44,033 nt of DNA from Pseudomonas phage Persinger. The position numbers and the translations under genes are program-made. The stretch is from sequence record MT613935.1, one strand, 5' to 3'. Below the pieces are notes generated by a model. That model made no database searches. It was not told the DNA's origin and saw only the letters and a program-made list of their open reading frames with translations. This document shows, piece by piece, positions 556-21,549 of the stretch (the stretch's first letter is position 1; each line of letters opens with the position of its first letter).

Positions 556-2582
556 CCGCCCTTGCGCCCAGCAACCGATTTTGAGCGCTTAATAGTGGGC
601 TTAGTCTGTGGGCGCGTGGCCTTCTGTTCCTCTTGTGGGATTTCCGCAGGCTTGTTGTCGTTGGCTGGCCGCTGCGGCTTTTGCTGCGGCTTGGGCGTTG
701 GCGCCGGCAGCTCGCGCGCCTTGCCATCGTCCGGCATCGCGTAGCGCTCGGCGAGCCGTTTAAACGATGGATTCATGATCTTGAGCGCGGCGAGCGCGTA
801 CACGCGGCAGTCCAGACCTTCGTTCCGTGCGCGGTCTGGCTTGTGCCACTCGCGCACAGGCTGGCCCTTAACGTACCTGGTGACCAGCTTTTCGGAAGTT
901 ATTTGCTTGTACCAGTCCGCATCGCGGTCGCTCGGCGTGTGGCAGTAGCCAGGACCGCCGGTCTTTTCTTCGGCGCCCACGGTGGCCGCCAGACGGCGCA
1001 TGACCACCAGCTTGGCTTCGTCGGTGCCGACCAGGAACAGGTCCACTTTCCTGGCGCGTTTTCCCGACTGCTTGCGCTGCGGCTTCTCGACAATCGGACG
1101 GCCCCAGCCGGACACGCCCTTGCCGGCGAACAGGCGCCGGCCAGTCCTGCCTTTGGCGTAGTCGTAGGCCGCCTGGGTCATGCCGTTGGTGCCGCCGGTA
1201 TCCAGCAGGGCGGCGCTGATTGGCATGATGGCGCCGCTTTCGTGCTGGTAGGTGGACGCCAGCAGGTCGTCCAGGTCGTCCCATACGTCCTGGTGCAGAG
1301 GGTCGCCCCACAGCACGTAATAGCCGATGGACCACGATTCCTCACCGACGCCCCAGGCGACCACTTCGCATTCCAGGCGGTCCATCTGCATGTCGATGCC
1401 TGCGGTAAGGTACAGGCCACCGGCCGGAACCTCGGCGCGGTATTCCTCGGCGCGTCCCTGCAGGCTGTTCGGGTCTGCCTTCTCGCCCTTCTCAGCGTAG
1501 GTCAGCGCCAACGACACGTTGACGAACGACTGCAGGTCGTCCAGCGCCAGCTTGTCCAGGTACGACTGCACGATATCGCGCAGACGGCGGAACGTTGAAA
1601 GCATTTCAGGTGCATGGAAGCTGGCGTGCCCTTTGAACGGCTTGGTCGCCTTCCAGCCGTGGCCAAGGCGCTCGGCGTTGCGGATCGCGGCCACGCGCTC
1701 GCCGTCATCCCATCCGACGCCGCAGCCTTCGCAGTGATAGTGCGCAGTGCCGGGGTCGTGTTCCTGGTCCTTGTCTTTTTCGGCGTCGTCTATGCCGGTG
1801 GAAACGCGACCCGACCAGGACACGTTTTCCCATCGCAGGTGCTGGGCGTGACCGCAGTGCGGGCACGGCACGTAGTAGCGGCGCTGGTCGCCTTCGTTGA
1901 ACGCCGTTTCAATGCGGCTGGCGCCTTCGATGGTCGGCGTGCTGGACTCGGTACGCAGCGCATCGTCGCCGAAGGACGCTGAACGCTGCGCCAGCAGCTC
2001 GCCTGGGTCGCCTTCTGGCGTAGCTTCGAATCCGTCGATTTCGTCGGCCTGGGTTACCGGCGCCGAGCGGCCCCGCAGTGTCTTTGGCGAACCAGCCCAG
2101 CTGAACATCAGCCAGCCGCCGATATACGAAATGATGCGGCTGTTGTTGACGCCCTCGCGGCCCCGCTGCTTGGCCATCTTGCTGCTGATGGCCGGGTTGG
2201 CGTCCAGCATCGGGCGCAGCTTCGTTTCCAGGAACGTCTGCACGTCGCCCTGCGTCGGCTGAACCAGGATTTGCGAGCGCGGCTCATGCTCGATGAAATA
2301 GCCGGTGACGCACTGCTGGACGGTGGTTTTCCCCAGCTGCGCGCCGGTCATGTACGACACGCGGCGCACGCCTGGTTCCTTGATGGCGTCCAGCATGCCG
2401 CGCTGATAGGGTGCGTTGGCGAACCGGATCGGACCCGGCTTCGCGTTGCCCACTGGAATGCGCACGTTCTTTTCGGCCCACACGCTCGGAAGCATGTCGG
2501 GCGGTGGCACCAGGTTCTGCGCAGCGCGTCGGGTGGCAGCGATGACGGCGGCGCGGTTGCTGAACTGCACCACGTCAGCCAT
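537..2582 (-). CDS. Terminase large subunit, lambda gpA family
   Basis: 681-aa ORF with recognisable GpA-family sequence throughout (ATPase N-terminus, nuclease C-terminus). Low-complexity Pro/Gln/Lys C-terminal tail contains ANDNK and EIPQEE (the 19-bp repeat). Overlaps the small-terminase stop. Confidence 0.85.
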   Translation of the reverse strand: MADVVQFSNRAAVIAATRRAAQNLVPPPDMLPSVWAEKNVRIPVGNAKPGPIRFANAPYQRGMLDAIKEPGVRRVSYMTGAQLGKTTVQQCVTGYFIEHEPRSQILVQPTQGDVQTFLETKLRPMLDANPAISSKMAKQRGREGVNNSRIISYIGGWLMFSWAGSPKTLRGRSAPVTQADEIDGFEATPEGDPGELLAQRSASFGDDALRTESSTPTIEGASRIETAFNEGDQRRYYVPCPHCGHAQHLRWENVSWSGRVSTGIDDAEKDKDQEHDPGTAHYHCEGCGVGWDDGERVAAIRNAERLGHGWKATKPFKGHASFHAPEMLSTFRRLRDIVQSYLDKLALDDLQSFVNVSLALTYAEKGEKADPNSLQGRAEEYRAEVPAGGLYLTAGIDMQMDRLECEVVAWGVGEESWSIGYYVLWGDPLHQDVWDDLDDLLASTYQHESGAIMPISAALLDTGGTNGMTQAAYDYAKGRTGRRLFAGKGVSGWGRPIVEKPQRKQSGKRARKVDLFLVGTDEAKLVVMRRLAATVGAEEKTGGPGYCHTPSDRDADWYKQITSEKLVTRYVKGQPVREWHKPDRARNEGLDCRVYALAALKIMNPSFKRLAERYAMPDDGKARELPAPTPKPQQKPQRPANDNKPAEIPQEEQKATRPQTKPTIKRSKSVAGRKGGWVKSW
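627..645 (-). repeat. 19-bp late element copy A (TTCCTCTTGTGGGATTTCC on + strand)
   Basis: Lies in the terminase 3' tail (read as EIPQEE), 72-90 bp upstream of the gpW-like start (555). Confidence 0.8.
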
Positions 2583-3096
2583 CTGAATCAGCCTCTTCGT
2601 CGTCTTCGTCGTCCAGGTTCAGGTCGGCTTCGGCGGCAGTCTCCAGCGCCAGCGTCAGTTCCTCGCGCAGCTTCGCCTTGAAAATGATTTCATCAGTCTC
2701 TCCCAGCAGCTGCAGCACCGCGCGCGCCGGCACCTGCATGACGTTGGCGCGAATGGCGGCCATCAATGCGGCGGTGGCGCGTTCGAACTCGCGAACCGGC
2801 GCCACGTCGCCTTTCGCCTTGGCCACTTCCAGTTCGGCCCGCTCGGCTTCGGCGGCGAGCTTGCGGCGCTTCAGCTGGTTTTCATCCGCCAGGGTGGTGC
2901 CGCTACCTTCCTCGCGCGCCTTCTCCCGAAGGAACGCTGCGACCTCGGCTGAATTGAATTCGCTAGCGACGCCGCGCTGACCTTTCTTTACAGGGCAACC
3001 AGCACGAACCCAGGCGTCAACGGTCGGCGGAGTGACGCCGAAAAACTCGGCGCACTCGCCACGGTTCAGGGTTTGGCCCTTGCCTTTGCTCGCCAT
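2575..3096 (-). CDS. Terminase small subunit, Nu1-like (N-terminal HTH, acidic C-terminus)
   Basis: 173 aa. N-terminus TLNRGECAEFFGVTPPTVDAWVRAGCPV is a Nu1-type winged HTH. Coiled-coil middle, acidic DDEDDEEADSDG tail. Immediately upstream of and overlapping the large terminase. Confidence 0.6.
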   Translation of the reverse strand: MASKGKGQTLNRGECAEFFGVTPPTVDAWVRAGCPVKKGQRGVASEFNSAEVAAFLREKAREEGSGTTLADENQLKRRKLAAEAERAELEVAKAKGDVAPVREFERATAALMAAIRANVMQVPARAVLQLLGETDEIIFKAKLREELTLALETAAEADLNLDDEDDEEADSDG

Positions 3097-3260
3097 AAAT
3101 TTCCTTGATTGATAGCACTTTGCTAATCAAAAAACTTGATTTGAAACGGCACGCAGATGTGAAGTTTCGCGGAGTGTCTGCCCCCGCATGGCATCGGCCG
3201 CCCGGAAGGACCCGTCGATGAGAATTTTTCTCATTGTCAAGTGCCATTCGTCGGCTCCCG
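3097..3260. promoter_or_regulatory. Putative cos / packaging-recognition and late-promoter region upstream of Nu1
   Basis: Non-coding stretch 5' of the small terminase gene. TTGATT...AATCAA inverted repeat (3105-3130), a third TTGATTTGAAACGG copy (3135-3149), an A-tract, and the ATGAGAATTTTTCTCAT palindrome (3218-3234). Lambda-type cos lies immediately upstream of Nu1. Confidence 0.3.
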
Positions 3261-3278
3261 ACAGACGGTCACGCACCA

Positions 3279-3800
3279 TCATGGTGCGCCCCTCACGCTG
3301 TCATAGGCCGCTTCACACGCTAGCCCCCTTGCCCTGGCCTGGTCAGCAACTGCAGCCAGGTGGCCCGCCGCTTGGTCAGCCCGCTTGAACACGTCGGCAA
3401 GCACTCGGGCGTACTCGGCAGCTGCCTTGCTTGCGGCGGTAGTGCAGGCACTGCGGCCGGCTTCACTGTCTGCCAGTCGGGCGGCGAGCTGGTCGGCTGC
3501 GTCGCGCAGGCTGCCAGCAGTGGCAGCAGCATCAGCGGCATCAGCTGCCGCACGGTCGATTTCACGCTGTGCATCTTGGGTCACCTTGTCGATGGATTGC
3601 TGGCGCATGGCCTCGATAGCGCGCTGTTCGGCCTGTGCCTGAGCGGTGGCCTTGGCATCGGCCGCCAGGTGCGCTTCCCACTTGGCCTTCCAGGTGTTGT
3701 CAGTCGCGCCCTGACCATTCCAGTAACCGGCCGTGTAGATGGCGAGCGCGGCCACCAGGGCAGCGATGGCGCGCCAGTGCTTCAGTGCCCAGGCCATCAT
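3279..3800 (-). CDS. Rz-like i-spanin
   Basis: 173 aa with an N-terminal TM helix (WRAIAALVAALAIYTAGYW) followed by Ala/Gln/Arg-rich coiled coil. Start ATG overlaps the endolysin stop (ATGA). Last gene of the lysis cassette. Confidence 0.6.
   Translation of the reverse strand: MMAWALKHWRAIAALVAALAIYTAGYWNGQGATDNTWKAKWEAHLAADAKATAQAQAEQRAIEAMRQQSIDKVTQDAQREIDRAAADAADAAATAGSLRDAADQLAARLADSEAGRSACTTAASKAAAEYARVLADVFKRADQAAGHLAAVADQARARGLACEAAYDSVRGAP
3320..3574 (-). CDS. Rz1-like o-spanin lipoprotein, embedded in Rz in a different frame
   Basis: MHSVKSTVRQLMPLMLLPLLAAC: signal peptide with LAAC lipobox, followed by a Pro-rich body (PTSSPPDWQTVKPAAVPALPPQ). Fully nested within the Rz ORF. Start could also be the internal Met (3541). 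Confidence 0.5.
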   Translation of the reverse strand: MHSVKSTVRQLMPLMLLPLLAACATQPTSSPPDWQTVKPAAVPALPPQARQLPSTPECLPTCSSGLTKRRATWLQLLTRPGQGG

Positions 3801-4576: not shown

Positions 4577-4902
4577 TATTCGCCGCCTCCAGTCTTGCCG
4601 ATCTTCGCTTTGACCAGCGAAATCAGGTCAAGGTTCTTGATGGCGCGAAATCCAGCAGCCAGCAGCGAACCGCCGAACGCACCCAGCAGGAAGCCGACGC
4701 TACCAGCCAGGCCGGGGTCGATGCTGTAAGCGCTGATGGCCCAGGGAGTGCCCCAATAGGCGCAGGCCACGCCAGTGCATACGAACCACGCACGCCCGCC
4801 CCAGCCGCTCAGTTCCTCTTGGAACTTCAGCGCGACCAGGGCGCCAATGAAGCCGGCGATGATGGCCTTGTCGGTGTTCAGTAGCCGTTCCAGGAAGTCC
4901 AT
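4576..4902 (-). CDS. Holin
   Basis: 108 aa with three predicted TM segments, Gly/Ala-rich (IIAGFIGALVALKF..., FVCTGVACAYWGTPWAISAY, GSVGFLLGAFGGSLLAAGF), charged C-terminus. First gene of the lysis cassette. Confidence 0.5.
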   Translation of the reverse strand: MDFLERLLNTDKAIIAGFIGALVALKFQEELSGWGGRAWFVCTGVACAYWGTPWAISAYSIDPGLAGSVGFLLGAFGGSLLAAGFRAIKNLDLISLVKAKIGKTGGGE

Positions 4903-5408
4903 CAGCGGCGGACCTGTTTGCGGGTGATGGGTTGCATGGTTGCCGACCTCTGAAGTGATGATGGCGGATTGTTATCGTTCGCTGCCTTGGCATCCTCTTG
5001 TGGGATTTCCCGCAGCAGGTTTCGAACGTGACGGTCAGACACGCCCAGCAGCTCGGCGATGGCATCAGGCTTCATTCCCTCGCGTGCCATGCGGATTGCC
5101 GACTGGTCACGGAATCGCCTGTAAATCTCTGCGCAGCTCGCCGGCTGCAGAATCTCGCCACCGAACGCATCGACCAGGCGCTTGGCGTCGTGCCATCCAA
5201 GGATGCGCACCAGGCTGTCGTCAGGCTTCAATCGCTTGGGCACGTACATGATGACCCGGACGCCGCGCTTGCTGGTCTTTCCGTCGCGGCCATAGGACTT
5301 TGCGCCATCGACGCCCGCATAGCACCTTGGCAGCTGCCCGATCAAGTATAACGCGCGCTCACGCCCAATAACGTCCGCTATCTCCTGTGCGCTCGCAGGT
5401 AATTGCAC
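4902..5408 (-). CDS. Mor/C-family transcriptional activator (candidate late-gene activator)
   Basis: Core resembles Mu Mor. LVRILGWHDAKRLVDAFGGEILQPASCAEIYRRFRDQSAIRMAREGMKPDAIAELLGVSDRHVRNLLR ends in the C-terminal HTH. The ORF reads on through EIPQED (19-bp repeat copy B) and AANDNN before stopping. Confidence 0.55.
   Translation of the reverse strand: MQLPASAQEIADVIGRERALYLIGQLPRCYAGVDGAKSYGRDGKTSKRGVRVIMYVPKRLKPDDSLVRILGWHDAKRLVDAFGGEILQPASCAEIYRRFRDQSAIRMAREGMKPDAIAELLGVSDRHVRNLLREIPQEDAKAANDNNPPSSLQRSATMQPITRKQVRR
4992..5010 (-). repeat. 19-bp late element copy B (18/19 match, ATCCTCTTGTGGGATTTCC)
   Basis: Lies in the 3' tail of the Mor-like gene (read as EIPQED), 90-108 bp upstream of the holin start (4902). 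Confidence 0.75.
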
Positions 5409-6306: not shown

Positions 6307-6810
6307 TCAGAATTTCTTGCCGTCAGCCTTGGCGCGATTTTCCGGCTTGTGGTCGGCGCGCTTCGCGTTGTAGGCGAGCTTTTCGACCAGGGCGCCTGCC
6401 AGGTCCAGGCCGCGAGCGCCGGCATAGTCGAAGATGCGCACCAGCGTGTCGGCCAGCTCGACTTCCACAGACCTGCGATGCGGCAGGTGGTCGTCCTGGC
6501 GATCCTTGCGCAGACCTTCCAGCGCTTCGGACAGTTCGCTGTGCATCAGCGCGATCATTTCGCCGTCGTTGCGGTCCTTCGGCTCGCCAGTCTGCAGGTC
6601 GTGCCACCAGCCTGCGCGCTTGGCCAGTCCATGGCACAGCACAGTTGCGCAGTACAGGCCATTGACGGCCTTAATCGCGATGTCGTCATTGCCGAGAATG
6701 CCAACCAGGCTTTGGAACGCTTCGAATTCCATGTTGCTGGGTTCGCCGCATTTTGCTTCCAGCTCTGCAGCAATGGTAACGAACGGTTCTTGCGGTTGAT
6801 TGACTTGCAT
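6307..6810 (-). CDS. MazG-like nucleoside-triphosphate pyrophosphohydrolase (all-alpha NTP-PPase)
   Basis: 167 aa. SELSEALEGLRKD...VEVELADTLVRIFDYAGARGLDLAGALVEKLAYNAKR matches the MazG/HisE-type EExxE...DxxxY...KxxxNxxR pattern. Confidence 0.6.
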   Translation of the reverse strand: MQVNQPQEPFVTIAAELEAKCGEPSNMEFEAFQSLVGILGNDDIAIKAVNGLYCATVLCHGLAKRAGWWHDLQTGEPKDRNDGEMIALMHSELSEALEGLRKDRQDDHLPHRRSVEVELADTLVRIFDYAGARGLDLAGALVEKLAYNAKRADHKPENRAKADGKKF

Positions 6811-7856: not shown

Positions 7857-10130
7857 TTAGATTGGCGGTCCTATGTGCCTGTGCAGCTCGGGCGGCATCT
7901 TGAACAGCCGTTTGCTGGCCGTCCTGCGCGGTGGTCCGCCGGTCATCTTCTGCAGTAGGCGCGAACAATCGGTGGCCTGGCTCTTGGTCGGCCTGTCGTA
8001 ACCCAGCGCCATCAGCACGTCGGTGGCGGTCATTTCCTGGCCGCTGCCGCGCATGTTCCAGTTGAACCGCTGCAGCAGCAGTTCTTCCAGCGGGTCGATG
8101 GCTTCGTGTTCCTTGTTGACGCCTTCCAGTTCGGCTTCCTCTTCGCGCTCCAGCCACCAGCGTTCGCCTGCACGGTAAAGGGTCGCGACCTCTGCCCACA
8201 GCTGCTGCACGTCGATGCCGTGCTGGTAGTCCAGGTTCACAATGGGGATGGTCCACCAGCGGACGTTTCCAGTGTCGTCGGCCAGGAACCGTTCGGGGTT
8301 CACGCTGGCGAAAAACACGGTGCGGCGCTGGTATGCGGATTCAAGGCGGTCATACGGCCGGCGCAGCTGGTCAACGTCCTGCGAAATGAACGCCTTCAGC
8401 TTCGCAATGTCGGCCTTGCGGAAAGTGCCGTCCAGTTCGCCCAGCTCGACAATCCAGTGACCAATCGCGCTGCTGATGGTGTCCTTGTTGTTCGGGTCGA
8501 TGCTGGCGCCGATCTTCACCAGCTCGCGCTGCAGTGCCGGCAGCAGCGCCTTGACCCAGGCTGTCTTCCCAAGCGATTGCGGACCCTGCAGCACCAGCAC
8601 GCCTTTGGACCAGAAACCCTTCGGCATCAGTGCTGCTGCCACGGCCGAAATCAGCCAGCGGCGCACGAACAATTCCAGCATCTTGCGCGGGTAGCCTGGC
8701 GCAGTCTCCAGCGTGTCATAAAGCGCCTGCAACCTGCTGACGCCATCCCATTGCCTGGACAGGATGAAGTCAGCGGCTGGGTTGTAGCTGTTCATGGTGC
8801 CGATCAGCTTCAAGTAATCGGACGTGTCGGCCTTGGGCATGCGATTGCGCGCGCACAGTGAATTGATTTCAGCCAGGGCGCAGTTCGCCGCGTTGTCGTC
8901 GCCGTAGTGCCTGCCTGGGACGGTCACCACCACGTCTTTCTTGATTACGTTGTATTTCGCCGTGATGCCGTACTGCTCCAGCATCCACTGCAGGTTTTCC
9001 CAGGTGTTCAGCGGCTGCTGTCGGTCGGACAGGTGCGGGAACATGAACGGGTTAACGCTGCTGTCCAGGTCCAGGTAATTGTCGTTCGCGGCCTTCGGGA
9101 CTGCTGCGTTGATCTGCTCGCGCACGGCTTCGATGCCTTCCAGGGCGTGCAGGTCGTTGAAGTCGGTCGGCTTGGTCGTCAGGCTTTCGAACTGTGGCAC
9201 CACCAGGATTGCGTTAGCCGAGCTGGCCGCCTGGCGCGCGTAGTGGATACCGTCGTTTTTCTTGTCCTTTGCCCACTGGTCGTTATCCGCGCAAATCAGC
9301 AGGGTGGCAGCTGGGAACAACTCACGCATGGCGCGCGCGATGGTCGGCACGTTGCCTGCGTCGAACGCCACGGCGACGCAGTGTCCGGTGGCCATATGGA
9401 TGCTGGCGCCTGTCGAATAACCCTCGGCCACGGCGATGACCGGCTGTGCGCCAATGGGCTTGCCGCCGAGCATGAAGAACCCGCCGCGCTTCTGGCCGCC
9501 TGGCAGATAGTCGCGGTCGCGGCCGATTTCGGCGTTTTCGTTGGCGAAAATTGCCTGCAGGCTGACCAGGTGGCCGTCGATGTTCTGGATGGGCACCAGC
9601 AGCGCTTCCTGGCCGTTTCGCCACTTGCCGATGCGCAGACCGAACGACAGCACGCCTTTGCGCTGCAGATAGGGGTGTTCGTCGCCTTCCAGGTCGGCGG
9701 CCAGGTTCCAGATAGACTGCGCGCGCTCGGCTGCCATGGCGCGTTTGCGTTCGCGCTCCATGCGCTCGGCCTCTTCCTCGGCTTTGCGCTGCTGCCTGCG
9801 CCGCTCGATTTCCGATTGGTCGATTGGCTCGCGCAGGTCTTCGTTCAAGCTGAAGCCGAACTGCTGCGCCTCATGAATCAGGGTGGCAATAGTGATGCCG
9901 CCGTTAGGCTTGATGGACTTCCATGTGTCGCGGGCGTCCTTGCTGTCGTACTTTCCGGTCGCCTTCTTGCTCCAGTCGTCCCACAGTCTGAACCCGTCAT
10001 TGCCCAATTCGGACTTGATGGCCATGCCGATGCGCACCCACTCTTCGCGGCCACAGCTCGCGTCCAGGTAGGCCAGCGCCTCGGCGATCTCTTGTTCTGT
10101 CAAGTCGCGGTAAGCGTTCAGGGCGGTCAT
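7857..10130 (-). CDS. P4 alpha-like DNA primase/helicase (TOPRIM primase + SF3/D5-type helicase)
   Basis: 757 aa. TOPRIM signature (VAEGYSTGAS...LICADND). Walker A GPQSLGKT with downstream D5_N/DUF5906-like helicase region. AANDNY motif mid-protein. Confidence 0.8.
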   Translation of the reverse strand: MTALNAYRDLTEQEIAEALAYLDASCGREEWVRIGMAIKSELGNDGFRLWDDWSKKATGKYDSKDARDTWKSIKPNGGITIATLIHEAQQFGFSLNEDLREPIDQSEIERRRQQRKAEEEAERMERERKRAMAAERAQSIWNLAADLEGDEHPYLQRKGVLSFGLRIGKWRNGQEALLVPIQNIDGHLVSLQAIFANENAEIGRDRDYLPGGQKRGGFFMLGGKPIGAQPVIAVAEGYSTGASIHMATGHCVAVAFDAGNVPTIARAMRELFPAATLLICADNDQWAKDKKNDGIHYARQAASSANAILVVPQFESLTTKPTDFNDLHALEGIEAVREQINAAVPKAANDNYLDLDSSVNPFMFPHLSDRQQPLNTWENLQWMLEQYGITAKYNVIKKDVVVTVPGRHYGDDNAANCALAEINSLCARNRMPKADTSDYLKLIGTMNSYNPAADFILSRQWDGVSRLQALYDTLETAPGYPRKMLELFVRRWLISAVAAALMPKGFWSKGVLVLQGPQSLGKTAWVKALLPALQRELVKIGASIDPNNKDTISSAIGHWIVELGELDGTFRKADIAKLKAFISQDVDQLRRPYDRLESAYQRRTVFFASVNPERFLADDTGNVRWWTIPIVNLDYQHGIDVQQLWAEVATLYRAGERWWLEREEEAELEGVNKEHEAIDPLEELLLQRFNWNMRGSGQEMTATDVLMALGYDRPTKSQATDCSRLLQKMTGGPPRRTASKRLFKMPPELHRHIGPPI

Positions 10131-10870: not shown

Positions 10871-11160
10871 GGCTGCGCCACCGGCTGGAACAGCACCGCG
10901 TCGCCACGGTGCACGTTCTCGCGTTGGGTCACTGGGTCCAGGTGGTCAGGGTTGCAGCACGCCCGGTTCTTGCACAGGTGGTCAAGCACCAGGCCGCCAG
11001 CGATGGGTCCGCGCAGCAGCTGCCAGACGACGCGGTGGACCATCAGGCGCTTGCCCTGGACCCACACGCGGCCATAGCCGTTGCGGTTCAGTTCGCCTTG
11101 CCATTCCCAGCACCAGGCAGCCGTCACCATGATGCGCGGCTGCAGTTTCTCCAGGCTCAC
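10867..11160 (-). CDS. HNH endonuclease
   Basis: 97 aa. WQGELNRNGYGRVWVQGKRLMVHRVVWQLLRGPIAGGLVLDHLCKNRACCNPDHL: HNH_3 pattern. Confidence 0.75.
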   Translation of the reverse strand: MSLEKLQPRIMVTAAWCWEWQGELNRNGYGRVWVQGKRLMVHRVVWQLLRGPIAGGLVLDHLCKNRACCNPDHLDPVTQRENVHRGDAVLFQPVAQP

Positions 11161-11459
11161 GCATCACGCGCCTTTCCGGCCTCGCCGGCTGCCTGGTTGT
11201 CGTTGTCTTCCTTGCCGGGCGCGGGTCGATGCGCTGCGCAGTAAGGACAGACCCAGCCATGGCGGTACTTAACCCACCCACGCTCACGCGCTTCCGTCTC
11301 AAGGTCGCGGTATGTATTGATCACTGAAGCCTGCGTGTCGGATGCTTCTTGCATCGGCCCTTCATTGTCGTGCGACCAGCACCTCTCCGGTGAGTAGCCT
11401 TTTCCATCTGACCACTTCTCGCACCGATCTTCGCAGCGTATTTCGATCCAGAAGCCCAT
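11157..11459 (-). CDS. Cys-rich hypothetical protein (100 aa), C-terminal EDNDNQ tail
   Basis: Start at Met 11459 (MGFWIEIRCEDRCEKW...), overlapping the upstream stop (TGATG). GWVCPYC near the C-terminus. Confidence 0.4.
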   Translation of the reverse strand: MGFWIEIRCEDRCEKWSDGKGYSPERCWSHDNEGPMQEASDTQASVINTYRDLETEARERGWVKYRHGWVCPYCAAHRPAPGKEDNDNQAAGEAGKARDA

Positions 11460-11692
11460 CACACCCCCTCCTTGCTGTTGCGCCGACGCCTCTCCCATGC
11501 TTCGAACTCCTGTCGCGTTGCCACACAGGATCCATGCGAGCAGCCATACTCGTGGCAAACGGTTTTGTTGCAGACCGAGCGAAATCCAGTTCCGCCGCAG
11601 TGATCGCATCCGGAGCGGCAGTGCGTGCATCTGAAGACCTCGCCAACCTGGCCGGTTCTGTTTCCGCCTGCATCCTGAACAGCATTCATCAC
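11459..11692 (-). CDS. Cys-rich zinc-finger-like protein (77 aa)
   Basis: CTHCRSGCDHCGG...CNKTVCHEYGCSHGSC: 12 Cys in 77 aa. ATGA-coupled to the upstream gene. Confidence 0.45.
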   Translation of the reverse strand: MMNAVQDAGGNRTGQVGEVFRCTHCRSGCDHCGGTGFRSVCNKTVCHEYGCSHGSCVATRQEFEAWERRRRNSKEGV

Positions 11693-12735
11693 ACCCCCTC
11701 CTTGCCGGGCGCGGCGGCGAGAAACTTACGTAGGTCACGAAGGAGTGCCCTGCCGGTGACGCCACGTTGTGCAAGAAATTCAGCTAGTCTGCCGATGAAC
11801 TCTTCCGGCACGCTGTGCTGAGCCTGGGCGCTATCCCCGGAGGCCTTCACGCATGACTTGATCGACGCCAACAGGTAGGACCAGGCGAAGCCGCGCTCCT
11901 GATTCGGGCGCAAACCAAGCGCACGTGCCACGTCATCGCGACACTGTTTGTCCAGGTCGTTGAGTTGCTGAGCCTGGGCTACAGGGGTACGAAGCCCGGC
12001 GATCAGCCGATCCACAATGGCCTTGTTCTTGAAATCGCCGTAGCGGGCGTCTGCTGTCGCATCGAGCAACTGTCTGGCCATGCGCAAAGTGCCTTCCTGC
12101 TCTGGATTGGTCGCCGTCTTGAACGAACCGAGCATTGCTGATAGTCCAATGCGCAGCGGGTCATGCGCGCGACTCAGCTTCTCCAACTCCGCGACCCTGG
12201 CCAGGGCGGCGTCGCGCTCCAGCACGATCTTCTGGGCAGCCTTGATGCTGGCGTGGTCGCCATGAACGAACAGATTGCCGTCGCCGCCACCAACGCCCAT
12301 GGTGCATTCGTAGGTTGGTCGCTCCGCCTCTGCCTGCACCGTGAATGGTTGTTTGAGCAGCTCGTTAACGCAGGCATCACGTTCTTTCTTGTCGCTGTAC
12401 CCATTGGGGTTGTTCTGTCCGTCGCCATAGCCCCACTCGTAAGCCTCGCGCAGCCGCTCCATCTCTTCCTGCTCGGACCGCGCCAGGAGGGCACGGCCTT
12501 GCCATGCCCGCCATGCTATTCGTTCGTCCTCCACAGAGAGAGTTTGGTGGCGCTGCACCTTGAAAACGCCTCTGTCTGTGTTTTCCTCGTAGGTGACTTC
12601 GTTCAGCCACGCATTGAACGCCGTGCGCTCATCCCCGCCTGCCTGCTCTACATTCGCAAACTCGCACCCCGGAATGCTGCACGGCATTCCGTCATTGTCG
12701 CCACACTTCCCGCATTTCTTGATAGTCATTTGCAC
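11689..12735 (-). CDS. Hypothetical protein (348 aa) with N-terminal Cys cluster
   Basis: CGKCGDNDGMPCSIPGC at the N-terminus. Long ORF in operon context with coupled start/stop. No family recognised. Confidence 0.55.
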   Translation of the reverse strand: MQMTIKKCGKCGDNDGMPCSIPGCEFANVEQAGGDERTAFNAWLNEVTYEENTDRGVFKVQRHQTLSVEDERIAWRAWQGRALLARSEQEEMERLREAYEWGYGDGQNNPNGYSDKKERDACVNELLKQPFTVQAEAERPTYECTMGVGGGDGNLFVHGDHASIKAAQKIVLERDAALARVAELEKLSRAHDPLRIGLSAMLGSFKTATNPEQEGTLRMARQLLDATADARYGDFKNKAIVDRLIAGLRTPVAQAQQLNDLDKQCRDDVARALGLRPNQERGFAWSYLLASIKSCVKASGDSAQAQHSVPEEFIGRLAEFLAQRGVTGRALLRDLRKFLAAAPGKEGV

Positions 12736-13173: not shown

Positions 13174-13512
13174 TTACTGCGCGTTGTTGTCGTTCGCTGG
13201 CGCCTGGCTGCTCAAGTGCCAGCCGTTACAGTGCGGGCACAGGTAGAACCGCGTTGGTATCTTCGGCGTCTTCGGGTCGTGCCTGATGTGACCAAGCGCA
13301 ATCATCGCGTCCAGCTCGGTGCGATAGCGCCGTTTTCTGCAAACGATTTGCCCATTCGGCAGACGCCACGCCACCGCCTTGCCGTGCACGATGATGATAG
13401 CGGCTCCAGCATCGCGCACCAGGGCGGCCATGGCCTTGGCGATGTAGCCACGACGCCGGCCATGTTCGTGTTCGATGCGCGCCCGACGCTTGGCGAACTC
13501 GGCGGCGTTCAC
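13174..13512 (-). CDS. Putative HNH-like/zinc-ribbon nuclease with CPHCNGWHLS motif and C-terminal PANDNNAQ
   Basis: Start set at GTG 13512, overlapping the stop of the small zinc-ribbon ORF (GTGA). ...EHEHG...LGHIRHDP...YLCPHCNGWHLSSQAPANDNNAQ. The track's longer N-terminus is Arg-rich and overlaps a better small ORF. Confidence 0.35.
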   Translation of the reverse strand: MNAAEFAKRRARIEHEHGRRRGYIAKAMAALVRDAGAAIIIVHGKAVAWRLPNGQIVCRKRRYRTELDAMIALGHIRHDPKTPKIPTRFYLCPHCNGWHLSSQAPANDNNAQ

Positions 13513-13675: not shown

Positions 13676-14059
13676 TCACATTTCACCTTCCACGACGCGC
13701 ACCGCGTCTTCAGCGCAGCGGACCACGCCAGCGCGCCCGCCGTTGTCGTTCACGGCCTGGATGAATGCCTGCTGCTGGGTGGTCGGCTTGCCCTTCGGCG
13801 TCTTCACTTCCAGCGCGGTGAACACGGCGACTTTCTGTCCGACCATATCGGCGGTGATCGTCACCGGCACCAGGCCGAACAGGTCGCTGAACCCAGGCGG
13901 CAGGCCGGTGGTGAACGGTCGCGCGTTGATAATCAGCATGTTCCGGCCCTGGCGCACGAACTGTTCACCAGTCCACGCCTGGCCGACGTTGGCGCGGAAG
14001 ATCAGTCCCTTGCCGGCCAGTGCGTTTCTGATGGTGTTCTGGATGGCGTGTTCGCTCAT
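13676..14059 (-). CDS. VRR-NUC domain nuclease
   Basis: 127 aa. GFSDLFGLVP...ALEVKTPKGKPTTQQQAFIQAV fits the VRR-NUC PD-(D/E)xK core (D...E-x-K). Confidence 0.55.
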   Translation of the reverse strand: MSEHAIQNTIRNALAGKGLIFRANVGQAWTGEQFVRQGRNMLIINARPFTTGLPPGFSDLFGLVPVTITADMVGQKVAVFTALEVKTPKGKPTTQQQAFIQAVNDNGGRAGVVRCAEDAVRVVEGEM

Positions 14060-14286: not shown

Positions 14287-14546
14287 GGTGCACCACCAAG
14301 CAGTCCAACTGGCTGCAGCTGGGAAGTGCCCACAACGTCCAGCACTTCCAGGGTCATAGCTTCCACCATCAGCCATGCTAAGGCTTTGGCGGTGTTCTTG
14401 GGCATGGCCGCGCGAGTGACGTACTCACCGCCATCTGGATAGCGGCAGCTGGCGAAGATTACGCGCTCGCCGTACTGGTTTCCCTCAACCCACCAGCGCA
14501 TCGGAAGCCGGTGGGGGAAAGGGTATCGGGTGAATTGGCGGTTCAT
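14280..14546 (-). CDS. Hypothetical protein (88 aa)
   Basis: ATGA-coupled to the upstream gene. No family recognised. Confidence 0.4.
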   Translation of the reverse strand: MNRQFTRYPFPHRLPMRWWVEGNQYGERVIFASCRYPDGGEYVTRAAMPKNTAKALAWLMVEAMTLEVLDVVGTSQLQPVGLLGGAPC

Positions 14547-15199
14547 GCTGTCAGTTCCTTTGATTCGTTGTTGTCGTTGGCCGGGTTTCGCACAGCGCTT
14601 CTGGCTATAGAAATCAGAACGTCACGAAACTCTTGCGGCGTTGCGTTGCGAATCCTGGTCTTATCCTTACCTCCAACCATCGCCATCATCCCGATACGCC
14701 TGGCTTTCTCATACCCGTAAAGCTCGACGGCGCGAGGATGAAGCTTTTGCGGTGATGGACCCCATACTAGTTCAGGAAGATGTACGCCTGCCGCGTAAAG
14801 CCATGTGGGCTTGCGTGAAAGGTGCCCATAGTGCCCCTGCTCGACGTAGCAGGTCCACCCACCATATTCGTCAGCCTTCACCCATCCGCCAGATTTTGGC
14901 GGCACGTTCAGGCCGAAGTATCGCCACGCATGCGAGTGCGCAGGGTGTTCGATTACGCCGCCATAGTTTCTAACTGCCGTCAGTGCGGCTGCGAAGCATC
15001 CGCCATCCTCGCCAAGACGAAACTGGTGCGGCTTGTTTGGCGCGCCGTGCCAGTAACGCCCCCAGCGCTGGCACGGCGGATGCGCAACGACAGGATTCAT
15101 TCCGCTGTACTTCCTCGCGTCTCTAGCCTCATCCCAAGGGTCAACGCCATCAAGCCCGAAGTAGGCACCATCAGTTTCGACGTAGAGCGCAGCAATCAT
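14543..15199 (-). CDS. Conserved hypothetical protein (218 aa), C-terminal PANDNNESKELTA
   Basis: Trp/His/Tyr-rich (HPPCQRWGRYWHG, HPAHSHAWRYFG) suggesting a metal or nucleotide site. No confident family assignment. Confidence 0.45.
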   Translation of the reverse strand: MIAALYVETDGAYFGLDGVDPWDEARDARKYSGMNPVVAHPPCQRWGRYWHGAPNKPHQFRLGEDGGCFAAALTAVRNYGGVIEHPAHSHAWRYFGLNVPPKSGGWVKADEYGGWTCYVEQGHYGHLSRKPTWLYAAGVHLPELVWGPSPQKLHPRAVELYGYEKARRIGMMAMVGGKDKTRIRNATPQEFRDVLISIARSAVRNPANDNNESKELTA

Positions 15200-16710: not shown

Positions 16711-18172
16711 TCAGCGCCGCCGGCCTGCGAAAACTTTTCGCGCCCAGGCCATCGGCGAGCTGTAGCCACGGCGGTGACCCAGCGCCACCAGCTCGTCCAG
16801 GGTCTTGGCCTCGGCCTGTTCGCGTGCACGTTCGCGACGGATGCGCGCCTTGTCGTCGTCGGTCATTTCGCGCAGCTCGCCTTCGGCTACTTCCATCGGC
16901 TTTTCTTCGCGCTTCAGCAGCTTTTGGCAGTATGGGCAGCAGTCCGGCAGCGGACGGCGGATGGCGTTAAAACAGCCTTCGCAGATGACTGGCGGCGGTG
17001 GTCCGTTGTCGTTCGATGCCTTGCCCTTCTCGCGCCCTTCCAGTGACCATTCGCGGTCATCGTCAGGGAAGCCGTGGCGCATGGCGTTGCCGGCGTGGTC
17101 CAGGATGACGGCGACTTTGCCAGGTGCTGGGCGCAGCGCTCGGCCGACTTGCTGCAGGTGCAGCGACAGCGATTGCGTCGGCCTGGCCTGGATAACCGCG
17201 TCAATGGTCACGTCCTGCTGTGCGATGGCCGACAGGTCGAAGCCTTCGCCGAACAGGTCAACGTTCGTCAGCACCTGGATACGTCCGGCGGCATAACCCT
17301 GGATGATGCTCTTTCGCTCGCCCTTGGGCGTGCCGCCGTCCAGGTGCGCAGCTGGGATGCCTGCCAGGTTGAACTGCTCGGCCAGGTGCTGGCTGTGCGC
17401 GACAGTGACGCCGAACGCCACGGTGCGCATGCCCTCGGCGTACTTGCGCCAGTGGCTGATGATGTTGCCGGTTAGCTTCGGCTTGTCCATCTTTTCTGCG
17501 GCGTCTTTCTTGCCGAAGTCGCCCATCTTCCGGCGAACGCCCTTCATGTCCGGCACGTCCGGCGCGAACACGCGGTAATGCGATAGGTGCCCTTGGTCGA
17601 TCAGCCAGCCAACGGATGGACCAAGCACGATTTCGTCAAAGTGGTCATCAAGGCCCTGGCCATCCAGGCGCTGCGGCGTGGCCGACAGGCCGACAACATA
17701 GGCGCCATTCTCGCTCAGCCACTGGATGACCAGCGCCCAACCTGCGGCGCCACTATGGTGCGCTTCGTCCACGATGGCGACCTTGGGCGGTATCAGCTGA
17801 GCCAGGCGGTTCTTTAGGGTGTCGATGCTCGCAATCTGCACCAGCTCGCGCAGGTTCATTGGCTGGCCGGCGGCGATGAAGGCGTGGGCGATGCCGAACT
17901 TGCGGAACGTCAAGCTGGTCTGTAGCACCAGTTCGGCGCGGTGGCAGATGAACCAGCAGCCCTGGTTCCTGGCGGCAGTCTCCCAGTTCGGCGCGGTGGC
18001 AGATGAACCAGCAGCCCTGGTTCCTGGCGGCAGTCTCGCCTGCCATGAACGACGCCAGGGCGGTTTTCCCTGCGCCGGTCGGAGCCTGCAGCAGCACACG
18101 CCGCGACCTGCGCATGGCCTGCCTAGCCTTCTGGATTATGTCCTGCTGATAGTCACGCAGCTGAATTGCCAT
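16711..18172 (-). pseudogene. SF2 (DEAD/DEAH, SNF2/type-III-res-like) helicase, frameshifted by a 55-bp tandem duplication
   Basis: N-terminal ORF (17753-18172: DYQQDII...LLQAPTGAGKT) and C-terminal ORF (16711-18099) both contain ETAARNQGCWFICHRAEL. Removing one 55-bp repeat unit restores a single helicase reading frame. Motifs DEAH (VDEAHH), SAT (LSATP), arginine finger region QQVGRALR. Confidence 0.7.
17928..18037. repeat. Perfect tandem duplication, 2 x 55 bp
   Basis: CCAGTTCGGCGCGGTGGCAGATGAACCAGCAGCCCTGGTTCCTGGCGGCAGTCTC occurs twice back to back (17928-17982 and 17983-18037). 55 is not a multiple of 3. Confidence 0.9.
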
Positions 18173-18238
18173 AATTTGAATTCATCATGGGTAACGGAGG
18201 TTAACCGACAGTATACAGAAGTAATCGGAAGGAATGCC

Positions 18239-18646: not shown

Positions 18647-18764
18647 ACCGTAGCAATATCTTTACTTCCAGTGATCTTGCGTTACGGGGTTGCAACCTAA
18701 ATGAATACTCAGCTATGCTTCATCTGCCATCACGGCCAATAACCAATAATCACGGAATCAAACC

Positions 18765-19889
18765 ATGAAACCAGGCGTTTATCCCGGCATCCCGAATGCC
18801 GACTACCACGGCGGCCCCGGCATCAGTAAGTCGGGGCTGGACCTGATCCACCGCAGCCCGATGCACTATCATGCCGTGGTCACGTCGGCGAACGACAACC
18901 GCGAACCGACCGCAGCCCAGGCGTTCGGCACTGCTGCGCATTCGCTCATTCTGGAGCCGGCAGAATTCGTGAAGGAATACTGCCTGGCTCTGCGCCAGGC
19001 CGACGTTCCGCACGCCATTGATGACCGCGACCAGCTGGTGGCGATGGTGGCCAAGCTGAACGAAAACCGTTTGCCGAAACTGGCAACCACCGGAAGCAAG
19101 GCCGAGCAAATCGAACGCATCCTGGATGCGCAGCCGCAGGAAACCTGGACGCCCGACCAGTTGGACAAGATGAAGGGAGCCGAGCTGAAAGAGATTCTGA
19201 ACCAGCTGAACGTCAATCGCCCTGGCCTGCTGCCCACCAGCGGCAACCGCCACGAACTGGCCGAGCTGCTGCGCGACAACGGCGTGGAAGTCACGCTGTG
19301 GTCGGACGTGCAGGCCGAGTGGTCGAAGAACAACGGAACCCGCACGGTGCTGACCCAGGAACAATGGGACCAGCTGCACGCGATGCGTGACGCGGTGATG
19401 GCGCACCCAGCCGCCGGCAAGCTGCTGACGGGCGTTCCTGGCGTTGCCGAACTGTCCGTGTACTGGAACGACCCGATGACCGGCGTTCTGTGCCGCTGCC
19501 GCCCCGACTGGTGGCGCGAAGATGACCTGCTGGTGGACCTGAAGACCACCGACGACGCCAGCCTGGAAGGGTTCGCCAGGTCGATTGCGAACTGGCGCTA
19601 TGACGTGCAGGCGCCTTTCTATCTCGACGGCGTGCGCATCGCCACCGGCCGCAAGCCTCGCGGGTTCGTGTTCATCGCCGTGGAGAAAAAGCCGCCGTAT
19701 GCGGTGGGCGTATACGTCCTCGACGCGGAAAGCCTGGAACTCGGCCGCGCCCAGTATATCGCCGACCTGAAGCGCTATGCCGAGTGCGAGCGGACGAACA
19801 CCTGGCCTGGATACGGCGACAAAATCCAGACCATCAGCGTGCCGGCCTGGCACGCGAACAAGAACGCGCATCTGCTCGATGCGTCCTGA
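18765..19889 (+). CDS. PD-(D/E)xK exonuclease (YqaJ / lambda-Exo / RecE-like) with N-terminal SAP-like motif
   Basis: 374 aa. PDWWREDDLLVDLKTT nuclease core. ELKEILNQLNVNRPGLL SAP/HeH-like. SANDNREP near the N-terminus. Followed by a Sak4-like annealase. Confidence 0.65.
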   Translation: MKPGVYPGIPNADYHGGPGISKSGLDLIHRSPMHYHAVVTSANDNREPTAAQAFGTAAHSLILEPAEFVKEYCLALRQADVPHAIDDRDQLVAMVAKLNENRLPKLATTGSKAEQIERILDAQPQETWTPDQLDKMKGAELKEILNQLNVNRPGLLPTSGNRHELAELLRDNGVEVTLWSDVQAEWSKNNGTRTVLTQEQWDQLHAMRDAVMAHPAAGKLLTGVPGVAELSVYWNDPMTGVLCRCRPDWWREDDLLVDLKTTDDASLEGFARSIANWRYDVQAPFYLDGVRIATGRKPRGFVFIAVEKKPPYAVGVYVLDAESLELGRAQYIADLKRYAECERTNTWPGYGDKIQTISVPAWHANKNAHLLDAS

Positions 19890-19916
19890 CTATCAGTGAA
19901 CGAGAACCTATAGAAA

Positions 19917-20894
19917 ATGGCAATCTTCAAGATCGAAGACGCCGAGCGCGAAGGCGCGCGGCTGGTCCTGGGCATCGGCGGCGTTTCCGGCAGCGGCAAG
20001 ACCTATTCCGCGCTGCAGGTGGCCTGGGGCTTGGCGAACTACGACAGTTCGAAAGTCGGCCTTATCTGCACCGAAAACCGCCGTGGGCGCCTGTACGCGG
20101 ATATCCTGGTGGACGCGCAGGGCAAGGTGCACAAGTTCAAGGTCGGCGACCTGACGCCGCCGTTCAGCCCCCAGCGCTACGTCGAAGCCATCCAGGCGTT
20201 CGTCGCGGCCGGCGTGGAAGTGCTGGTAATCGACAGCGTTTCGCACGAATGGGAAGGGCAGGGCGGCTGCGAAGATATCGCGCACGCTGGCAATAGCCGG
20301 AACCCGGAGTGGAACAAGGCGAAGCGCGAACACAAGTCCTTCATGAACGCCATGCTGCAGTCGCCGGTCCACGTTATCGCCTGCATGCGTGCACGCGAAA
20401 AGGTGAAGCTGGAAAAGGACGGCCAGGGAAAGACCCAGTACGTGCCGCAGGGCGTGCTGCCGATCCAGGAAAAGAACTTCACGTTCGAACTGACCGCCAG
20501 CCTGATGATGTGGAACGGCGGCCACCAGCGCGAAATCCTGAAGTGCCCCGCCGAGCTGATTCCGATCTTCGGCACGCCTGGCGAGTGGGCGGAAGGCTAC
20601 CTGACCCACGAACACGGTAAGCGCCTGCGCGACTGGGTGGACGGCGGCAAGCACCTGGACCCGGAAGTGCAGCGCGCGCGCGACAGCCTGCAGATGGCCT
20701 GCGAACAGGGCATGGACGCGCTGGTGGCTGCGTGGAAAGCGCTGCCGCCGCAGATGAAGAAAGCCATCAGCCCGGACGGCAAGGGTTGCCCCGATGACCT
20801 GAAGCGCTCGGCGGAAGCCTTCGACCAGCAGCGGCAAGCTGGCCACGATGACCAGGCCGCCGTCGATGATCTGAACGCACAGGTGCTGGGATAA
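19917..20894 (+). CDS. Sak4-like RecA-fold ATPase (single-strand annealing / AAA_24)
   Basis: Walker A GGVSGSGKT, Walker B VLVIDSVSH. Typical partner of a YqaJ exonuclease and SSB in phage recombination modules. Confidence 0.65.
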   Translation: MAIFKIEDAEREGARLVLGIGGVSGSGKTYSALQVAWGLANYDSSKVGLICTENRRGRLYADILVDAQGKVHKFKVGDLTPPFSPQRYVEAIQAFVAAGVEVLVIDSVSHEWEGQGGCEDIAHAGNSRNPEWNKAKREHKSFMNAMLQSPVHVIACMRAREKVKLEKDGQGKTQYVPQGVLPIQEKNFTFELTASLMMWNGGHQREILKCPAELIPIFGTPGEWAEGYLTHEHGKRLRDWVDGGKHLDPEVQRARDSLQMACEQGMDALVAAWKALPPQMKKAISPDGKGCPDDLKRSAEAFDQQRQAGHDDQAAVDDLNAQVLG

Positions 20895-20929
20895 TCCCAG
20901 CACCACCCAACCAGGAAAGGAAAGACGAA

Positions 20930-21148
20930 ATGGGACAAGCTGCCGAATACCTGACGCCTGCCGAACTGGCGAAGCGCTGGGGTGGTGCTGTGACCACCGG
21001 CACGCTGGCGAACTGGCGCAGTAAGGGCACCGGCCCGGCCTTCGCGAAGTTCGGTAGCCGTGTCCGGTATCCGCTGGCAAAGGTGGTGGAGTGGGAAACC
21101 GCGAACCTGCACCTGGTCGGCGCAAACGATAACGAACAGGGGAACTGA
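20930..21148 (+). CDS. Excisionase/AlpA-type HTH DNA-binding protein (72 aa), C-terminal GANDNEQGN
   Basis: LTPAELAKRWGGAVTTGTLANWRSKGTGPAFAKFGSRVRYPLAKVVEW: HTH_17-like. Confidence 0.5.
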   Translation: MGQAAEYLTPAELAKRWGGAVTTGTLANWRSKGTGPAFAKFGSRVRYPLAKVVEWETANLHLVGANDNEQGN

Positions 21149-21150
21149 AA

Positions 21151-21549
21151 GTGGACAACGTGAAGGGTTACGAACAGCTGACCAACGTTCTGGCGCGGGC
21201 GTTCAACCAGGCCGCAGTCGGAAAGGGTGCCGAGCGTCACGCGAACGACAAGCCGTTTCATGAACAGCCGATGCAAAAGATTGCCGAACGGCGAGGCATC
21301 GGATTCATCCTCGGCCAGGCCGACAAAAAGTCGGAAGAGGCGCAGGGCATGGCGGAACGCGGCGAGCGCGACGCCGCAGTGCGCGAGCTGCTGGGCGCAA
21401 TCAACTACCTGTCCGGCGCCATCATCTTCCTGGAACGCCAGCAATCGACGGAGCCGATAGCGGCGAACGACAATAAGCAGTACGACAAATGCATAGTCTG
21501 CGGCGCCCGCGACTTGATGCATCATGCAGGGTGCCCACGCAATGACTGA
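21151..21549 (+). CDS. Hypothetical protein (132 aa) with C-terminal CxxC...HHAGC and AANDNK
   Basis: KGAERHANDKPFHEQPMQKIAERRGIGFILGQADKK. No confident family. Confidence 0.45.
   Translation: MDNVKGYEQLTNVLARAFNQAAVGKGAERHANDKPFHEQPMQKIAERRGIGFILGQADKKSEEAQGMAERGERDAAVRELLGAINYLSGAIIFLERQQSTEPIAANDNKQYDKCIVCGARDLMHHAGCPRND

Follow-up and report, generated by a model that had tools for sequence, protein, structure and literature searches.

A gene-encoded peptide resembling the SspB-binding head of the SsrA tag recurs in unrelated proteins of Pseudomonas phage Persinger and of many other phages

SsrA tags have a two-part layout: in E. coli, the first seven tag residues, AANDENY, are the binding site of the adaptor SspB, and the terminal LAA is that of ClpX (PMC10659297). 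The full tag reads AANDENYALAA in E. coli and (A)ANDDNYALAA in P. aeruginosa, and the head is AANDN in the tags of Caulobacter (AANDNFAEEFAVAA; PMC9393093) and A. tumefaciens (ANDNNAKEYALAA; PMC12493166). Degradation becomes dependent on SspB when a head that SspB binds is joined to a weak ClpX terminus, and binding of SspB alone can inactivate a protein (PMC10659297). Signals of this kind are also found in phage genes, since encoded ssrA-like tags control the repressor and the integrase of mycobacteriophage BPs (PMC4557955). Here we analyse the complete genome of Pseudomonas phage Persinger (MT613935.1; 44,033 bp, hereafter the window), in which a short peptide, [A/P]-A-N-D-N-x-(P), is encoded in a series of unrelated proteins. 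An earlier sequence-only reading had listed ten such proteins, most of them early, and had likened the peptide to the SspB-binding head of SsrA.

The phage peptide shares with the SsrA tag its first four to five residues, [A/P]-A-N-D-N, and in many phages also the division into an adaptor site and a ClpX site, the former standing 7-10 residues before a terminal Ala-Ala. It differs in being encoded by the gene rather than added by trans-translation, in lying often internally or N-terminally, in carrying Pro at position +2 and usually no aromatic residue, and in being of the alphaproteobacterial type even in gamma- and betaproteobacterial hosts; in Persinger, moreover, no canonical ClpX-binding terminus follows it. 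The engineered DAS+4 tags join an SspB-binding head to a weak ClpX terminus, an arrangement that the tail ANDNNESKELTA* in the window would share (asterisks mark stop codons), but they are synthetic, with the E. coli head AANDENY and a defined spacer, whereas the phage motifs are natural, shorter and at a variable distance from the terminus. As for mycobacteriophage BPs, there too a phage-encoded SsrA-like tag targets proteins for proteolysis and sets a life-cycle decision (PMC4557955). BPs, however, uses only an extreme C-terminal protease determinant, on two proteins and in hosts without SspB, whereas in the ANDN phages the conserved part corresponds to the adaptor-binding head and is found on about ten or more proteins per genome in many lineages. 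With respect to the integration-dependent immunity of BPs, in which the tag of repressor and integrase is lost when the phage integrates within the repressor gene, the Persinger motif sits on other proteins, and the integrase (23400-24644, minus strand; C-terminus ...LQADVEA) has neither NDN nor a terminal Ala-Ala. Peptides that bind hub proteins, such as the SSB tip DDDIPF or the beta-clamp peptide QL[SD]LF, are likewise short, are carried by disordered tails of unrelated proteins and are gained and lost; their sequences are unrelated to ANDN, and in other phages ANDN is also found on structural proteins.

A six-frame scan of both strands showed that the window holds exactly 12 AAYGAYAAY (N-D-N) sites, eight of which read A-N-D-N. 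All 12 are in the coding frame of long open reading frames (ORFs) and co-oriented with them, and none lies in another frame, antisense or in an intergenic region. Sequence and position of the ten instances already listed were all correct, including PANDNNESKELTA* of the ORF at 14543-15199, and two further sites came to light, AVNDNGG in a resolvase-like protein (13676-14059) and TVNDNS in the tape-measure protein (26685-29051). These ORFs are real genes, as all of the motif-bearing ones that were tested matched a PHROG family (homology identified the terminase, the primase and the tape measure). When each protein was shuffled 5000 times with its composition preserved, the mean count was 1.03 for NDN (maximum 7, against 12 observed) and 0.12 for ANDN (maximum 3, against 8 observed). 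The recurrence is real, and more marked than the sequence-only reading had stated. An unbiased ranking of k-mers placed NDN (p=8e-10) first among the tripeptides and ANDN (p=1e-12) first among the tetrapeptides of the Persinger proteome, with no enrichment of ANDD or ANDE in the same ranking. Ten NDN sites fall in early, middle and lysis genes (6197 aa) and two in structural genes and terminase (7217 aa). Nor is the motif confined to Persinger or to early proteins; in other phages the portal protein, the N-terminal region of the major head protein and nucleases carry it as well.

The nonamer is also enriched as DNA (12 copies against 1.34 in dinucleotide-preserving shuffles), all of its copies are co-oriented with transcription and 9 of the 12 are identical, AACGACAAC. 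The recurrence could therefore be that of a signal in DNA or RNA, be it a sequence bound by some protein of the phage or its host, a methylation or Chi-like site or an element of the mRNA, and this genome does place a true DNA element in nearby coding tails (see below). We nevertheless consider such a signal highly improbable. AAC and GAC are the preferred codons (85% and 80%), and the T-ending codons occur in the motif at background rate (AAT in 2 of 24 against 15%, GAT in 2 of 12 against 20%), while the preceding Ala codons include GCG, GCC and GCA. At orthologous sites in phage PPpW-3 third positions differ and the amino acids are fixed; in ECO1230-10, an E. coli relative of 53% G+C, codons vary freely (AAT GAT AAC, AAC GAC AAT and others); and across 196 AANDN sites of other phages the four Ala codons and both Asn and Asp codons are all used near background frequency. 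Besides, the flanking DNA is unconserved, and the preference for Ala or Pro ahead of NDN is a feature of the protein level. A repeated DNA element of the promoter, operator or Chi-like type was rejected in view of the variation of codons, the strict frame and the lack of intergenic copies in the window. Selection acts on the peptide, as had been proposed from the variable third codon positions, the usage of which equals the genome background. A link to queuosine-decoded NAY codons was also considered; the residues after the motif are not NAY-biased.

The DNA element just mentioned, the 'EIPQEE repeat', shows the reverse behaviour. Its sequence, GAAATCCCACAAGAGGA, is present in five identical copies, all on the minus strand (628-644, 4993-5009, 31509-31525, 37499-37515 and 41934-41950). 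Three are in coding sequence (the tails of terL and of a Mor-like gene, and a capsid-fusion gene) and the other two precede the sheath and baseplate-W genes, in intergenic DNA. Their synonymous positions are identical, including rare CCA and CAA codons, and each relative has its own version, identical or near-identical among its 3-5 copies. By this pattern the repeat is to be read as a DNA-level element separate from the peptide motif, and is probably a late-promoter or (Mor-like) activator box. The sequence-only reading had remarked on its closeness to ANDN in the terminase and Mor-like genes; the two are indeed adjacent there, but the repeat is not part of the peptide motif. Their closeness would most simply mean that both fit only where the protein sequence is unconstrained.

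The motif was then followed in five close relatives, PPpW-3 (Pseudomonas), ECO1230-10 (E. coli), Mano (Achromobacter), phiRSP (Ralstonia) and FoX5 (Xanthomonas). Related proteomes proved enriched in four cases and not in the fifth: NDN ranks first or second among tripeptides, and ANDN first or second among tetrapeptides, in PPpW-3, ECO1230-10, Mano and phiRSP, with 10-13 sites each, whereas neither is enriched in FoX5. Across the clade, 75 instances give the consensus [A/P]-A-N-D-N-x-P (position -2, A37/P15/G8; position -1, A50/V10); 50 of the 75 map to the final 30% of the protein, and for 19 the C-terminus is no more than 15 residues away. When orthologues are aligned, N-D-N stands fixed within gappy, variable segments, namely the tails of the terminase, Mor-like and excisionase-like (Xis-like) proteins, the linkers of primase and helicase and a loop of the exonuclease. 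Losses and displacements occur as well, and most copies are gone from FoX5. New bearers also appear in single lineages, on non-orthologous proteins: a methyltransferase in ECO1230-10, ParB in Mano and, in phiRSP, an unannotated ORF that immediately precedes the large terminase gene. Conserved islands of NDN and independent gains bear out the idea of a short motif shared by the tails of unrelated proteins. It has a conserved core in variable, disordered or loop regions and shows convergent appearance, gain and loss, as short linear motifs (SLiMs) do. We accordingly read [A/P]-A-N-D-N-x-(P) as a SLiM of disordered tails, linkers and surface loops of unrelated phage proteins.

FoX5 has nearly all the core genes of the clade and no integrase, and keeps the motif only in the linkers of the helicase and of the single-stranded DNA-binding protein (SSB). 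Relics are visible elsewhere, as SNDD in the exonuclease and PANNRAA* in the Mor-like protein. Co-variation with the host tag was considered as an explanation of the loss, on the basis of a tag taken to be ANEDNF, and was dropped, a literature table giving ANDDNYGSDFAIAA for X. campestris. The idea that another motif had taken its place in FoX5 was also rejected; the most enriched k-mers there, ANPE and AANP, stem from tandem repeats in two HNH-type proteins. These repeats (FoX5 596-1234 and 31844-32428) are of about 15 residues, read ...AAWRAANPE... and are unrelated to ANDN. Outside these five relatives, a survey of prophages was made through relatives of the AAA-ATPase in species-representative bacterial genomes. 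The motif is enriched in prophages of the alphaproteobacteria Microvirga alba and Sphingopyxis, which are close members of the clade, and is at expectation in the more distant prophages of Proteobacteria and other phyla that the survey recovered.

To look beyond the clade, IMG/VR was scanned for DNA encoding AANDNEP; at least 120 stretches matched, while a scrambled pattern of the same content gave 23. Among the matches listed, to which the counts for IMG/VR loci refer throughout, 114 loci (354,063 aa) hold 341 NDN against 24 expected and 285 ANDN against 2.9 expected. Sixteen loci belong to the Persinger clade, and most share no or one homologue with the window. The instances that the search pattern had not selected (228 contexts) give the same consensus, with A or P at -2, A at -1 and P at +2. 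DNA similarity to Sinorhizobium phage AP-16-3 was seen for 25 loci, other loci have their best match in Rhizobium or Sinorhizobium phages, and the motif-rich contigs include relatives of Sinorhizobium phages AP-16-3 and 16-3. The S. meliloti phage AP-16-3 itself carries 21 NDN in 50 kb, nearly all of them [A/P/T]-A-N-D-N. Altogether the NDN bearers represent 103 protein families, at least 41 of which have C-terminal NDN tails; among them are a DNA-repair exonuclease, a primase-polymerase, a dNMP phosphatase, an HNH endonuclease, a portal protein and a major head protein, the last with the motif in its N-terminal region. Control loci of other phages and bacteria are at expectation (NDN 23 against 28.7, and 7 against 3.7). 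Chance, or a composition artefact of Asn/Asp-rich low-complexity tails, can consequently be given next to no weight, as the observed counts were reached in none of the 5000 shuffles, the motif is the top k-mer in five genomes and control loci do not depart from expectation; what it may account for are two or three of the twelve Persinger sites, which look incidental (tape-measure VNDNS, resolvase AVNDNGG and EDNDNQ).

The consensus head, AANDN, is exactly that of alphaproteobacterial tags. The likeness to the SspB-binding head of SsrA put forward in the sequence-only reading is therefore sound for the alpha type, but the match to the gamma-type heads AANDENY and AANDDNY is not exact. Further likeness is found at the C-terminus of the IMG/VR bearers. 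Most often NDN and the C-terminus are 7 residues apart (39 cases, a sharp peak), followed by 8 (19), 9 (12) and 10 (9), and complete look-alike tails include AANDNEPVRAVA*, AANDNEPARRAA*, PANDNQEDEAEAA*, AANDNVDWRIAA* and PANDNTPSAEFAA*. NDN tails end in Ala-Ala in 49 of 100 cases and in Ala in 69 of 100, compared with 188 and 379 of 1600 other ORFs. Within the clade, tails with such an end are found in phiRSP (...KFAA*) and Mano (...EDAA*). The copies are encoded in frame by the genes and not added by transfer-messenger RNA (tmRNA), and ARAGORN found no tmRNA gene in the window or in 96 related or motif-bearing loci.

Two side observations concern tags and termini. The sole complete gamma-type tag in the scans is a short frame at the end of viral contig L190 (13735-13755, minus strand), which reads ...KAANDENYALAA* and is probably the tag-coding region of a tmRNA, phage-borne or from flanking host DNA. 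Separately, C-terminal Ala-Ala is about ten-fold over-represented in the ORFs of many phages and prophages of alpha- and betaproteobacteria, as seen in Mano, phiRSP, the Microvirga prophage, AP-16-3 and the IMG/VR loci (13.8%-30% against about 1.5% expected). This excess does not require an ANDN head, extends to prophage loci that are not enriched in NDN (12.4%), and may reflect widespread ClpX-type C-degrons or a bias of termination context.

Taken together, these features lead us to favour, tentatively and at slightly less than an even chance, the explanation that the motif mimics the SsrA head and acts as an SspB-dependent tether or degron through ClpXP. The host SspB adaptor would bind the motif and tether its bearer to ClpX, so that the lifetime of the bearer would become adaptor-dependent, a built-in and tunable degron. 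A motif placed 7-10 residues before a C-terminal Ala-Ala would make a complete pseudo-SsrA tag; where it is internal or followed by a weak terminus, as in Persinger, the tether would do the work, as in the DAS+4 tags. The benefit would lie in the fast clearance or the timing of the excisionase-like protein, the Mor-like activator, primase, helicase, nuclease and unassembled terminase. SspB is the leading candidate for the reader, with degradation as the presumed outcome, because the motif is identical to the adaptor-binding head of SsrA and often stands before a ClpX-type terminus. We judge evenly balanced the wider proposition that many phages of Proteobacteria (among them the Sinorhizobium 16-3 group and the P2-tailed clade on Pseudomonas, E. 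coli, Ralstonia and Achromobacter) scatter an SsrA-head mimic over their proteins and so plug them into host SspB-ClpXP, as a general and hitherto unrecognised layer of post-translational control or as sabotage of host quality control. Encoded pseudo-tags (AANDN, 7-10 residues, AA-COOH) would be the most explicit form of such mimicry.

Several observations weigh against mimicry of the SsrA head. The window lacks the canonical ClpX-binding Ala-Ala, its motif tails ending in NAQ, LTA or QGN, and only 1 of 59 ORFs ends in AA. Compared with the ANDDNY head of P. aeruginosa, the motif is one residue shorter and usually misses the aromatic (the AANDNY of the primase excepted), a residue reportedly important for E. 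coli SspB, in work ascribed to Flynn et al. 2001. Real tags do not feature the Pro that is common at +2 (in about a third of sites). Gamma-type heads are not enriched in IMG/VR, with 8 stretches for AANDENY, 26 for AANDDNY and 23 for the scrambled control, and no locus with several of them; gamma-type mimicry was rejected on these figures. Mimicry would thus not track the exact tag of the host. FoX5 has lost most copies though the tag head of X. campestris is also ANDDNY. In the exonuclease, AAND sits between strongly conserved residues and could have a structural role. Finally, related prophages contribute to the viral-contig counts (87 DNA-level clusters, 103 protein families).

Some of these points fit a genuine SLiM whose reader is not SspB but some other conserved hub protein, common to alpha-, beta- and gammaproteobacteria, such as a component of replication or recombination, a chaperone or a different protease adaptor; the likeness to SsrA would then be coincidental, or SsrA would use the same reader. 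The consensus does have features foreign to tags, with Pro at +2 and no aromatic, the motif remains ANDN in hosts with ANDEN or ANDDN tags, and the bearers in the clade are mostly proteins of DNA metabolism (SSB linker, primase, helicases, nuclease, ParB, methyltransferase, terminase), as a common DNA-associated hub would lead one to expect. We find this possible, yet on balance doubtful. The match to the tag extends over four to five consecutive residues, A-A-N-D-N; the combination of the motif with a C-terminal Ala-Ala, the ClpX determinant, at a tag-like distance in other phages is hard to explain without the SsrA pathway; and the bearers outside the clade, which include portal and major head proteins and nucleotide hydrolases, have no DNA-related function in common.

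A different purpose for the same adaptor would be titration: a dozen abundant heads without a ClpX terminus could saturate SspB, blocking the delivery of SsrA-tagged proteins and of RseA/MucA anti-sigma fragments, or could shield phage proteins from ClpXP. In favour of this, the motif in Persinger is mostly internal or followed by termini other than Ala-Ala. SspB takes part in the handling of AlgU-MucA in P. aeruginosa (PMC13251409), excess adaptor, free or peptide-loaded, competes in vitro (PMC10659297), and some phages carry their own SspB homologue, the adaptor being a known point of phage interference (PMC5587285). We hold titration unlikely all the same. Gains have recurred independently, and single small regulators conserve the motif strongly (107 of 120 Xis-like proteins), both of which point to a benefit for each bearer; one dedicated decoy would cost less, and the complete pseudo-tags ending in AA that many phages encode should be degraded rather than persist as stable decoys.

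Whichever protein reads the motif, it is probably encoded by the host, because no phage gene tracks the motif. Phyletic profiling spoke against a phage-encoded reader, a tail protein and the integrase being the only proteins missing from FoX5. SspB-like Pfam domains were not found in the early ORFs of the window, and no window protein is common to the unrelated motif-rich contigs, save generic capsid homologues and one window-specific ORF. The latter (6307-6810, minus strand, 167 aa) has no Pfam match and is absent from the five close relatives; homologues of it are encoded by 8 ANDN-rich viral contigs that are otherwise unrelated. A role as the reader is unlikely, since there are motif-rich relatives without this ORF.

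The SsrA tag, SspB and encoded ssrA-like tags are known parts; what is new is a proteome-wide head motif across many phage lineages. Our literature searches found no description of this motif, or of mimicry of the SsrA head, in phage proteomes. To our knowledge, the natural SspB clients described so far are essentially SsrA-tagged proteins and fragments of the RseA/MucA type. If the motif binds SspB, its bearers would be the first natural and widely distributed family of SspB clients that do not depend on tmRNA, and phages would routinely write host degradation signals into their own genes. This would give a handle on the timing and instability of phage regulators (excisionase-like proteins, late activators, replication proteins), on the quiescence of lysogens and on phage-host specificity at the level of proteostasis, and synthetic biology in alpha-, beta- and gammaproteobacteria would gain a set of short, portable degrons that nature has already tuned. 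ANDN enrichment is also a sequence signature with which disordered tails of 'hypothetical' phage proteins can be annotated. Even if SspB is not the reader, an enrichment of about 100-fold and the recurrence across unrelated phages imply that some conserved host protein must read the peptide.

Several of the individual sites of the window are in C-terminal tails. In the large terminase subunit (537-2582), ANDN is at 654-665 (minus strand) within QRPANDNKPAE, in a disordered C-terminal tail with 38 residues between NDN and the stop. PPpW-3 (as ADNDN), Mano and phiRSP have the motif at the aligned place, FoX5 lacks it and in ECO1230-10 it is displaced. The Mor-like late activator (4902-5408; phrog_836) has it at 4971-4982 (minus strand; AKAANDNNPPS) in its C-terminal tail, where it is kept in all five relatives but FoX5, which has the relic mentioned above. 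In the excisionase- or MerR-like helix-turn-helix protein, the Xis-like protein of 72 aa (20930-21148), ANDN is at 21122-21133 (plus strand) and the C-terminal tail ends GANDNEQGN*. The family keeps NDN in 107 of 120 homologues within an otherwise hypervariable tail, and some homologues have ANDN, then 8-10 residues, then a C-terminal AA.

Two further tails are read as lineage-specific gains. The ORF at 13174-13512 ends PANDNNAQ* (ANDN at 13186-13197, minus strand) and, as its orthologues in PPpW-3, FoX5, Mano and phiRSP are without the motif, this is taken as a lineage-specific gain. In the ORF at 14543-15199 (phrog_12600), ANDN at 14570-14581 (minus strand) heads a 12-residue C-terminal look-alike of an SsrA tag, ANDNNESKELTA*, which resembles the A. 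tumefaciens tag ANDNNAKEYALAA. NDN tails are present in just 6 of 120 homologues, hence our view that this one was gained recently; an AA end is found in 27 of 120. The ORF at 11157-11459 (phrog_8303), for which no orthologue was found in the five relatives, carries near its C-terminus a weaker variant with D at -1 (DNDN at 11196-11207, minus strand; GKEDNDNQAAG).

Other copies are internal. The primase (7857-10130) has AANDNY in an inter-domain linker (ANDN at 9078-9089, minus strand; PKAANDNYLDLD), where the flanking columns of the alignment are gappy and variable and the site reads AANDNF in PPpW-3, VNDNF in ECO1230-10, PANDND in Mano and HANDNE in phiRSP, and is lost in FoX5. The DEAD/DEAH-type helicase (16711-18099) has SNDNG in a linker (SNDN at 17005-17016, minus strand; KGKASNDNGPPPPV), corresponding to AANDNGPPPP in PPpW-3 and FoX5 and to ADNDNEVPPP in phiRSP, and absent at this site from ECO1230-10 and Mano. 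In the exonuclease VIII-like protein (18765-19889), ANDN is at 18888-18899 (plus strand) in a surface loop, VTSANDNREPT. Across 120 homologues the N is kept in 119 and the D in 116, the third position is N in 70, H in 35 and R in 14, and Ala predominates at both of the preceding positions (96 and 84 of 120). In an AF2 model (mean pLDDT 93) the site forms the loop between helices 32-40 and 50-63, a 10-residue block of pLDDT 71, the lowest value outside the C-terminal end. The ORF at 21151-21549 has AANDNK (ANDN at 21463-21474, plus strand; EPIAANDNKQYD), the aligned residues being AGNDNE in ECO1230-10 and PANDNV in Mano.

The two sites that the six-frame scan added are of another nature. VNDN at 13742-13753 (minus strand; IQAVNDNGGRAG) lies inside the folded part of the resolvase/endonuclease-like protein (13676-14059), where AVNDNGG is a conserved block of an ungapped region, from which FoX5 and ECO1230-10 differ at the site; it is possibly structural rather than a linear motif. 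VNDN at 26823-26834 (minus strand; GTTVNDNSQT) in the tape-measure protein is probably a chance or unrelated occurrence, because orthologues read TDNS or TDSS and NDN is not conserved. The Persinger SSB (21720-22256, plus strand) has no NDN in its linker, in which PPpW-3, ECO1230-10, Mano and FoX5 have one or two, and ends in a canonical partner-binding tip, DDDTPF.

Among annotated relatives, Persinger is closest to Pseudomonas phage PPpW-3 (Hiroshimavirus), with which it is syntenic and shares, in parts, about 78-80% identity. Genes are on the minus strand, save for a plus-strand early block at about 18.7-22.3 kb. Accessory genes at about 11450-12500, including an ORF of 348 aa, have 92-99% DNA identity to genes of P. 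aeruginosa phages that are of other types (LESphi3, phPA-G, PAO1_Ab03), a sign of recent exchange, and on the same ground P. aeruginosa is probably the host. A tRNA-Arg(TCT) gene (24958-25034, plus strand) lies 314 bases from the integrase gene and is hence a candidate region for the attachment site. Together with the excisionase-like gene, this suggests that Persinger is temperate, as are PPpW-3 and Mano.

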